A stretch of 64,000 nucleotides of DNA from Oligoflexia bacterium (GTDB lineage: Bacteria; Bdellovibrionota; UBA1018), in NCBI GenBank assembly GCA_963758495.1, contig CAVWVI010000003.1, positions 768,001-832,000 of the forward strand, given 5' to 3'. The notes below the pieces were generated by a model, which had not been told where the DNA came from, did not search any database, and saw only the letters and a list, made by a program, of their open reading frames with translations. Positions 19,921-20,799 of this stretch are shown one piece after another. Position 1 is the stretch's first letter. Each line of letters starts with the position of its first letter. Position numbers and translations under genes: made by a program.

Positions 19921-20799
19921 ATGAAGAGATATCATGCGATCACATTAGGAATAATTTTAGTGAACTTCTCTACAATACTTGCTTCTAATGTGGTTTCGGC
20001 TGCACCAGAAAATAATTTTGAAATTCAAGGCATGCGTGTGCAGATCTCTGGTCCTGGGGCCACTGAAAATGAGGTTCGAAATGTGCGGGATCGAGTGAAG
20101 GGTCCCTGGCTGAATCATCTACTTGAAGACAAGCATAGAATGAATCAGATTGATGCTACTAGTCAGGCTGAAATTTGTCCTATCTGTTTAGACGAGATAC
20201 AGGGCAAGGATCTGATGTTGACTCCGTGTAATCATGTGTTTTGCAGCCCCTGTATTACCCAGGCTCTCGATAATCAACAGAAGTGCCCGGCATGTCGTCG
20301 AGAGCTTGTAAATTCCAAGGAACTCCAACCTTTCAGGTACACTCCTGGTGAGGAAGTGGAATTGGCACTTGAGATTAATATTCCTAATTTCGACGACCTA
20401 CTCACTCCTGAGTTTGCGGCACTTGGAGTCATGTACGAGGTGGAAGGCTTGATGTGGAGTGGGGTTGCAAAACGGCAAGGTTTTTGGAGAAGGCTTCTAC
20501 GCGAGAGTATCTGGACAATGAATTACGAGGATGCAACACGGTTTTGTCGAGATTTGGGAAGAGGAGCAAGATTGCCCACTCGGGAAGAGTATAGAGCTTT
20601 GAAAAGAGTGCTGGGGGGTCAAAATCGTTATAATCCTCGCATAATCTCAGATATGGTGGGCAATGGCTTTTGGTCGTCTTCAGTCGACCCCGACTTTCCT
20701 TCCAACTACGCCTATGAATTCAATGGCAGTACTGGTGTCAGTGGCAGCTTTGGCATGAGTCGTAAGCGTGCCGTCCGGTGCATATTGCCAGCGCGTTGA
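19921..20799 (+). CDS. Secreted RING-finger (C3HC4) protein with C-terminal DUF1566/Lcl-like domain
   Basis: Signal peptide ending VSA; CPIC-x13-CNHVFCSPC-x10-CPACR; GLMWS...A..FC...RLPTREE...FWSSS...VRC; GAGGAG RBS. Confidence 0.85.
   Translation: MKRYHAITLGIILVNFSTILASNVVSAAPENNFEIQGMRVQISGPGATENEVRNVRDRVKGPWLNHLLEDKHRMNQIDATSQAEICPICLDEIQGKDLMLTPCNHVFCSPCITQALDNQQKCPACRRELVNSKELQPFRYTPGEEVELALEINIPNFDDLLTPEFAALGVMYEVEGLMWSGVAKRQGFWRRLLRESIWTMNYEDATRFCRDLGRGARLPTREEYRALKRVLGGQNRYNPRIISDMVGNGFWSSSVDPDFPSNYAYEFNGSTGVSGSFGMSRKRAVRCILPAR

Follow-up and report, generated by a model that had tools for sequence, protein, structure and literature searches.

The P0001 gene and its setting

The window, a 64,000-nucleotide stretch of the genome of an Oligoflexia bacterium (Bdellovibrionota), carries at positions 19921..20799 of its forward strand an open reading frame (ORF) of 292 aa, named P0001, which is preceded at 6 nt by the ribosome-binding site GAGGAG (19909..19914, + strand). 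A sequence-only reading of this DNA had seen a RING domain fused to a DUF1566/Lcl-like domain in this ORF, and the layout was confirmed: a signal-like N-terminus is followed by a helical region, a RING recognized by Pfam, a flexible linker, and a tail of C-type-lectin fold. The source assembly (G000) comprises 3.66 Mb in 5 contigs at 92% completeness, and the genomes of relatives are labeled G001, G060, G069, G070, G075, G086, and G112. Among the matches listed for the ThrRS of this genome, the best was an Oligoflexia MAG (80%), and a relative of one paralogue carries the label Bdellovibrionia. A search of 1,201 candidates for full-length homologues returned only P0001 itself and one paralogue from its own genome. 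The AlphaFold model of P0001 (44 alignment rows) reached a mean pLDDT of 79.5.

P0001 is flanked by a lipoprotein-like gene on one side and a converging gene of the KamA radical-SAM family on the other. It is intron-free, has a bacterial ribosome-binding site, and is surrounded by housekeeping genes of bacterial type; the contig is 1.68 Mb long, and its GC matches. Eukaryotic contamination as its origin was rejected on this genomic context, as it is unlikely for a solitary gene amid bacterial housekeeping genes on a contig of that length. Elsewhere in the window, an elongation factor G gene is found in two ORFs (1410-3517, - strand), reflecting either an assembly error or a pseudogene.

The RING domain

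The C3HC4 RING covers aa 86-126 (20176..20298, + strand) and was identified by Pfam, by a solved-structure match, by a fold match, and by its ligand spacing. Its zinc ligands are C86, C89, C103, H105, C108, C111, C122, and C125, with spacers of 2-13-1-2-2-10-2, exactly the pattern that had been read by eye at 20176-20295. The Pfam check suggested with that reading gave six RING models clearly above cut-off (best E 2.6e-11). Among solved structures, RNF4 and RING2/Ring1B have the most similar RINGs, and the modeled domain (pLDDT 76-88) matched Ring1B at Z 9.8. The hydrophobic residues, the proline, and the arginine after the last cysteine that had been noted as typical of E2-binding RINGs are present as I88, L90, P123, and R126, and these E2-facing positions are preserved, as the alignment with RNF4 shows; we take their role in E2 contact from RING-E2 structures. 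The arginine equivalent to R126 is kept in 11 of the 17 parsed RING paralogues, and in the RING of three close paralogues pN (0.05-0.07) is below pS (0.17-0.29), on small counts. Judged by its ligands, modeled fold, and E2-facing residues, P0001 is a RING-HC (C3HC4) protein, with a predicted E3 activity.

Such a RING could also be a decoy or scaffold that transfers no ubiquitin and sequesters host E2s, heterodimerizes with host RINGs, or dimerizes the protein. Heterodimer partners of the Ring1B/BMI1 type are among the best structural matches, and the central helix has no tryptophan, but neither the eight ligands nor the hydrophobic positions nor R126 have been lost, the arginine recurs among the paralogues as given above, and the RBR paralogues described below keep a catalytic-position cysteine. 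A decoy role has, in our view, a slim chance.

The lectin-fold tail

The C-terminal DUF1566/Lcl_C-like tail spans aa 153-292 (20377..20796, + strand) and was delimited by a sub-threshold Pfam match and by fold. The sequence-only assignment to a DUF1566/Lcl-like domain holds for the fold, which is Lcl-CTD's C-type-lectin fold, while the P0001 tail itself stays below the Lcl_C (PF07603) cut-off (E 4.9e-6, 27.3 bits, cut-off 34.9); several of its close relatives exceed it. The modeled tail matched InvE (Z 12.1), Bd2740 (10.8), Lcl-CTD (10.8), the DGR (diversity-generating retroelement) target TvpA (10.2), and Mtd (8.3). Among 44 aligned tail proteins, C209 is invariant and C287 nearly so, a pair that we presume, from C-type lectins, to form a disulfide. 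An ESM Atlas search with P0001 gave adhesion-domain leads only, all sub-0.9, and one with the 768-aa family gave nothing.

The tip of the tail looks like a DGR variable region

The last ~37 codons of P0001 look like a DGR variable region (VR; W251-C287, 20671..20781, + strand), as judged from paralogue variation, codon pattern, and template adenines. Within a trio of close paralogues, a body identity of 79-93% compares with 40-41% over the last 43 aa, and between P0001 and its closest intact paralogue, identity amounts to 81% for the RING but 39% for the tip. Tip differences in the trio are concentrated at codon positions 1-2 (0.23-0.51), and position 3 does not exceed the background level (0.14-0.27; p 1e-4 to 3e-3). 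Of the 8 pairs given this codon-position test, only 3 were significant; the five pairs at greater distance, among them P0001 with its closest intact paralogue (0.47/0.50/0.50, p 0.24), were not. Near the end of P0001, the third-position C/T share is 0.85, compared to 0.51 ± 0.10 for 2,323 genes, and 25 genes reach ≥75% at their end, nine of which are tail genes.

Eight tips, picked by us as the least drifted, showed a variability of 0.66 at the template-adenine columns of two G001 templates, as opposed to 0.37 and 0.33 elsewhere, and all 14 tested tips gave 0.66 as opposed to 0.47 and 0.44; across the tip tests, the coincidence with adenine columns had p-values of 1e-8 to 2e-5. In a control block upstream, variation was mostly at position 3. 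For P0001 alone, the adenine bias relative to four foreign templates was modest (p 0.01-0.03, with 56-66% non-A identity). Near-twin Ank-RING-FGE genes had zero differences at variable tip positions, and a 94%-identical tail pair showed no adenine bias.

Directly after the stop codon, GCGTGG (20800..20805, + strand) forms an IMH-like motif, so called for its likeness to the VR/TR ends of relatives. Of 18 tail genes, 5 have it after the stop, P0001 among them, compared to 1 of about 3,085 other genes, and in the DGRs of G070, G069, and G086 it is found after the VR and is lacking after the TR. Further downstream lies a perfect 17-bp inverted repeat (20856..20904, no strand assigned), which is either a DGR-type downstream repeat or a terminator common with the converging KamA-family gene. 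The putative VR, the motif, and the repeat fit the description of DGR targets in the accessible text of PMC5758913.

DGRs in relatives and the missing cassette

Judging from template-target mismatches, complete DGRs in relatives rewrite the tail of P0001's family. The mismatches fell at template adenines in 16/18 and 22/24 cases in G001, 14/18 in G070, 17/17 in G069, 13/14 in G075, 17/20 in G086, and 19/22 in G060. The G070 DGR is ordered as target, avd, template, and reverse transcriptase (RT). The body of its cis target matched the RING1-Rcat profile at E 9e-99, and this target, truncated by the start of its contig and spread over two ORFs, equals the template at 96% of non-adenine positions. 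Six of the 12 remote tail loci of G070 aligned to the template with an adenine bias at 72-89% non-adenine identity, mismatches at adenines numbering 17/30 in an Ank-RING gene and 28/47 and 17/33 in RING1-Rcat genes; because of that identity, these loci count as drifted and not as current targets. Of the 10 remote loci in G069, one could be aligned to the template, and it showed no bias.

No Avd, DGR-type RT, or template repeat was found in the P0001 assembly (92% complete). It has five RT matches, and of the two ORFs read, one has group II intron domains and neither the DGR motif. Using tblastn, the DGR RTs of three relatives retrieved intron-type RTs only (23-28%) from the P0001 genome, and Avd as a query retrieved nothing. 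An adenine-tolerant scan, nhmmer, and AAY-density scans of this genome yielded no template, and no match to a template-like pattern was found in metagenome and viral contigs; the G070 RT as a query matched two short metagenome loci. A template-like stretch at C2:123871 was rejected as a template repeat, being the far side of an IS607-interrupted paralogue. An IS607-type element splits a close paralogue of P0001 inside its tip (L096:11211-13965, G000:C2). Long (AAY-NNN)n repeats, with NTNT/NANT in one frame, were observed at about 1016000-1028200 of contig G000:C3 and about 1007400 of C4. Population reads came from one DNA run (share 0.06) and gave one 213-base contig over 20650-20862, identical and with a depth of 2.6; no RNA run was listed among those with P0001 sequence.

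With no DGR enzyme or template in the assembly, rewriting may have stopped here. A DGR cassette was probably active in the recent past of the P0001 lineage and has since been lost, or it is missing from the assembly. P0001 is not a current DGR target in the strict sense, as a same-genome template, RT, and Avd are all missing; with the cassette absent and the near-twins devoid of new tip variation, it is best called DGR-derived.

The DGR imprint might be history altogether, left by a once-diversified lectin cassette that was shuffled onto many genes and is now drifting or fixed, leaving the ligase-DGR coupling without a function today. Such a history would agree with the absent cassette, with paralogues that are IS607-interrupted, split, or fragmentary, with the weak per-gene signal of P0001, and with a G070 cis target that itself lies in two ORFs. 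However, tip divergence postdates duplications whose copies differ by only 14-23% at third positions, P0001 kept both the IMH-like motif and the inverted repeat, and the G070 cis target still agrees closely with its template outside adenines, so that we hold this explanation to be rather improbable.

The putative ligases and the tail family

By local profile search, the P0001 genome has 19 ORFs with a RING and 20 with the tail, four of the latter being fragments. In seven intact genes, the tail is combined with an E3-type domain (RING, Ank-RING, and RING1-IBR-RING2, two each, and one RING1-Rcat), and two further E3-tail genes are broken. Twelve of the 19 RING ORFs have no tail, and most of these have signal-like N-termini. 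The tail also occurs solo and on non-ligase proteins, namely a metallophosphoesterase, a Sel1 protein, and five proteins of 770-890 aa with a large domain for which the members scanned gave no match in Pfam, NCBIfam, or Atlas. These five signal-bearing proteins (L099, L112, L093, L106; G000) show the clearest tip hypervariation.

The signal-RING-tail order of P0001 recurs in G112. Across 127 class genomes, the tail was found in 50, RING in 10, IBR in 9, Avd in 19, and E2 in 1, and the tail is present in 8 of the 10 RING-bearing genomes. A wider library yielded 149 tail relatives, 68 of which were taken into the Pfam scan; eight from other sources carry a RING, 27 (one of them from the P0001 genome) a RING1-Rcat body, and one an F-box.

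Two signal-bearing RING1-IBR-RING2 paralogues with the tail, at C4:41195-42997 (L107:3195-4997) and C4:226948-228537 (L109:2948-4537), keep the catalytic-position cysteine, have relatives in other genomes, and are candidate bacterial RBR ligases. They share their domain order with the eukaryotic ARIH1 (E 7e-10) and Parkin but differ from them in being bacterial, signal-bearing, and tail-fused. Of the three-domain RBR order, only two zinc domains are visible in the RING1-Rcat family, and an invariant GCN aligns with ARIH1 RING2 (E 8e-6); fold support is weak, as Foldseek found nothing for the RING1-Rcat model at E ≤ 0.001 and reached RBR folds only at E 1.4e-3.

Lectin tails of a second, FGE type, with C/T-rich ends (0.65-0.76), were observed at L096, L100, L190, L201, L094, and L110 (G000), two of them on Ank-RING proteins. 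They are possibly a second DGR tip class.

The presence of the tail on non-ligase proteins, and the fact that its closest folds are surface adhesins, count against reading P0001 as an exported E3 whose tip chooses substrates. The RING could be a working E3 and the tail an address label for a host surface receptor, organelle, or membrane, serving uptake or localization. That very different cargoes end in the same tail would agree with this, as would folds closest to adhesins or receptor-binding tips (InvE, Bd2740, Lcl, Mtd; accessible text of PMC10769870 and PMC11162425) and a conserved cysteine pair that suits an oxidizing compartment. But P0001 has neither a translocation nor a membrane segment, its 292 aa hold no other candidate substrate-binding domain, and the tail seems dispensable for export because the tailless RING ORFs are mostly signal-like. 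We regard an address label as unlikely, though with a real chance of being correct. The substrate-binding role that the sequence-only reading gave to the tail stands as one plausible role, the other being host surface or organelle binding.

Predicted export and possible delivery

P0001 begins with a predicted Sec-type signal peptide (~aa 1-27, 19921..20001, + strand), with the cleavage site read by eye. All signal-peptide calls come from our own n/h/c heuristic; together with a helix at residues 2-24 of the model, it supports the N-terminal signal peptide first proposed by eye. This peptide is 74% identical to that of the paralogue, and signal-like N-termini were found in 16 of the 19 RING ORFs compared to 630 of 2,324 genes, the paralogues being non-independent.

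For type II secretion (T2SS), GspC, D, E, F, and G were above cut-off in one operon of the P0001 genome, so that P0001 appears to have both genomic prerequisites of a T2SS substrate, a Sec signal peptide (by heuristic prediction) and a gsp operon. Other secretins in the genome are PilQ and two of the Tad type. The search for further secretion systems covered VipB, the eCIS tube, VirB4/CagE, and type III secretins, none of which was matched. No match to an ATP/ADP (nucleotide) translocase was found in this genome, and flagellin had 7 matches.

Sec followed by T2SS would be the simplest exit for P0001, and it would reach a cytosol only if the bacterium is inside it or in a leaky vacuole. The negative results for VipB, the eCIS tube, VirB4/CagE, and type III secretins and the lack of a membrane-spanning or translocation segment in P0001 count against the exported-E3 reading, as do the missing nucleotide translocase and the flagellin matches. 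Passage of nine cysteines through the periplasm is awkward for a zinc finger and also counts against it.

Ubiquitin machinery and eukaryote-directed context

A check for conjugation machinery in the same genome, suggested with the sequence-only reading, covered UQ_con (E2), ubiquitin, Prok-E2_B, and Prok-JAB and gave no match to any of the four. As to its sensitivity, UQ_con matched in 1 of 127 class genomes and JAB in 8 of 14 controls, and the ubiquitin and Prok-E2_B searches ran without a positive control. The sole E2 of the class lies at G054:C4:187055-187465 (UQ_con E 8e-50), in a genome with two RING matches.

RING/E1/E2/JAB systems exist in prokaryotes (PMC7159879, accessible text), one class member has an E2, and the P0001 assembly is 92% complete, all of which would allow the RING to serve a prokaryotic ubiquitin-like system, in its own cell or in prokaryotic prey. 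The genome has no E2, ubiquitin, or JAB match, though, and signal peptides are present. Together with the gene being a eukaryotic contaminant, against which its setting speaks, and with RING genes in 10 of the 127 class genomes telling against both, this explanation is already largely disfavored and, we judge, very improbable.

Ankyrin matches number 81 in the P0001 genome, compared to 0-14 in 40 relatives. A signal-bearing WWE-RING-Deltex C-terminal-RWD-ARTD15_N-PARP fusion lies at L091:3136-5730 (G000:C1), beside an RCC1-repeat gene. Within the window, a signal-bearing protein of 327 aa (13744-14727, - strand) has a eukaryote-type domain at its end, a zinc finger of the AN1 type (Pfam E 4.9e-7). 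Signal-like tandem genes with C2H2 arrays and TGEKPF-type linkers are found at two contig ends (G000:C4:1-2495 and C1:573620-574888), and their products are candidates for nuclear targeting. The ankyrins, the WWE-RING-Deltex-PARP fusion, RCC1, the AN1 finger, and the C2H2 arrays point to a eukaryotic partner. The sequence-only proposal of an E3 delivered into a eukaryotic cell is upheld in its RING, its export signal, and its context, while E3 activity and delivery to the cytosol would be its conjectural parts; the DGR-type tip and the genome-wide family had gone unnoticed in it.

Elsewhere in the P0001 genome, we observed ankyrin-papain and ankyrin-phosphoesterase fusions, signal-like proteins with ankyrin repeats and a double AAA (Clp-type) module (L189:446-3103 and 7602-10268, G000:C5), and, adjoining an Ank-RING-tail gene, a lipoprotein-like gene that weakly matches the Anthrax_toxA adenylate-cyclase family (L094:4412-5959, G000:C1; E 6e-6).

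Proposed mechanism

Our preferred reading, to which we assign a probability of about 0.5, is that P0001 is an exported E3 that uses the E2~ubiquitin of a eukaryotic host, with a DGR-derived tip choosing the substrate. The signal peptide would direct Sec export, and T2SS would then release the protein while the bacterium is inside a eukaryotic cell or closely pressed to it, the host probably being a protist. There, the RING, given its fold and residues, would bind host E2~ubiquitin and activate transfer, and the lectin-fold tip would capture a host protein and present it for ubiquitination. Adenine-directed retrohoming from a template repeat would have written the tip, giving each paralogue a different binding face; this last step is drawn from the same tail family in relatives and from the statistical signature here, and the rewriting may have ceased.

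The gene thus suggests an arsenal of exported ligases with rewritable targeting against a eukaryotic host. More broadly, and only tentatively, since we think it somewhat doubtful, a branch of the Bdellovibrionota may have moved from bacterial prey to eukaryotic cells, where exported RING, RBR, and F-box proteins with DGR-hypermutated tips, released by Sec/T2SS inside the host cell, would redirect the host proteasome and form an antibody-like bacterial library of ubiquitin ligases.

Relation to known systems

Known DGR targets are phage tail tips, surface proteins, and defense sensors, and bacterial E3 effectors acquire new targets via ordinary duplication and drift. By its domains, P0001 would join these two known kinds, a bacterial E3 effector and a DGR-type tip. 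The comparisons that follow are with the accessible parts of the cited papers.

SneRING of Simkania negevensis is, like P0001, a bacterial RING; it binds zinc and has E3 activity on eukaryotic E2s (PMC12591485, PMC13720258). However, its ligands are atypical, and neither a signal peptide nor a DGR-type tail is described for it in those parts, whereas P0001 has canonical C3HC4 ligands, a predicted signal, and a variable lectin fold. The lineage-specific RING/U-box-LRR expansion NEX1b of Neochlamydia (PMC4209131) resembles the P0001 family in that an expanded E3 domain is combined with a variable recognition domain in one bacterium. There, recognition is by LRRs diversified by duplication, whereas the P0001 family has a lectin tip apparently written by retrohoming, a Sec signal, and no type III secretin found.

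Among DGR targets, those of the CLec2/category d kind, such as Legionella LdtA, have a DUF1566 tail, a C-terminal VR, an IMH, an inverted repeat, and remote targets (PMC5758913). P0001 shares the DUF1566-type tail, the putative C-terminal VR, the IMH-like motif, and the inverted repeat; in contrast, the CLec2 targets described in the accessible text of that paper, in which "ubiquitin" does not occur, are surface or adhesion proteins, and for P0001 the template and enzyme are missing from the assembly. Defense systems also carry DGR-diversified lectin tips on effector domains (PMC7159879, PMC10907252). Their proteins, like P0001, have a variable C-type-lectin tip C-terminal to the effector domain, and theirs are diversified in trans, but those tips are of the FGE type and act inside their own bacterium, whereas P0001 has a eukaryote-type E3 that is predicted to be exported.

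As to the fold, Lcl is a T2SS substrate with this C-type-lectin fold (PMC11162425), and Bd2740 is the prey-recognition fiber tip of Bdellovibrio (PMC10769870). The P0001 tail folds as Lcl-CTD (8q4e) and the Bd2740 tip (8oks), at Z 10.8 each; both of these are trimeric surface adhesins with no enzyme domain, whereas P0001 carries a RING.

A literature search, with the supplementary target tables of PMC8144416, PMC11661182, and PMC5758913 outside its scope, found no DGR-diversified ubiquitin ligase and no eukaryote-associated Bdellovibrionota with such effectors, and "ubiquitin" was absent from the main texts of three DGR surveys and a defense-sensor paper. If our preferred reading is true, a ligase with a retroelement-written tip would be a natural analogue of an antibody-guided degrader. 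The genomes concerned would indicate life in association with eukaryotes, in a phylum whose members are known as predators of bacteria. According to the accessible text of a 2026 review (PMC13720258), bacterial RBR counterparts have not been identified, so that the RBR-type candidates in the same genomes would belong to a class that it lists as still lacking bacterial members. An Ank-IBR protein was also observed at L190:2058-4496.
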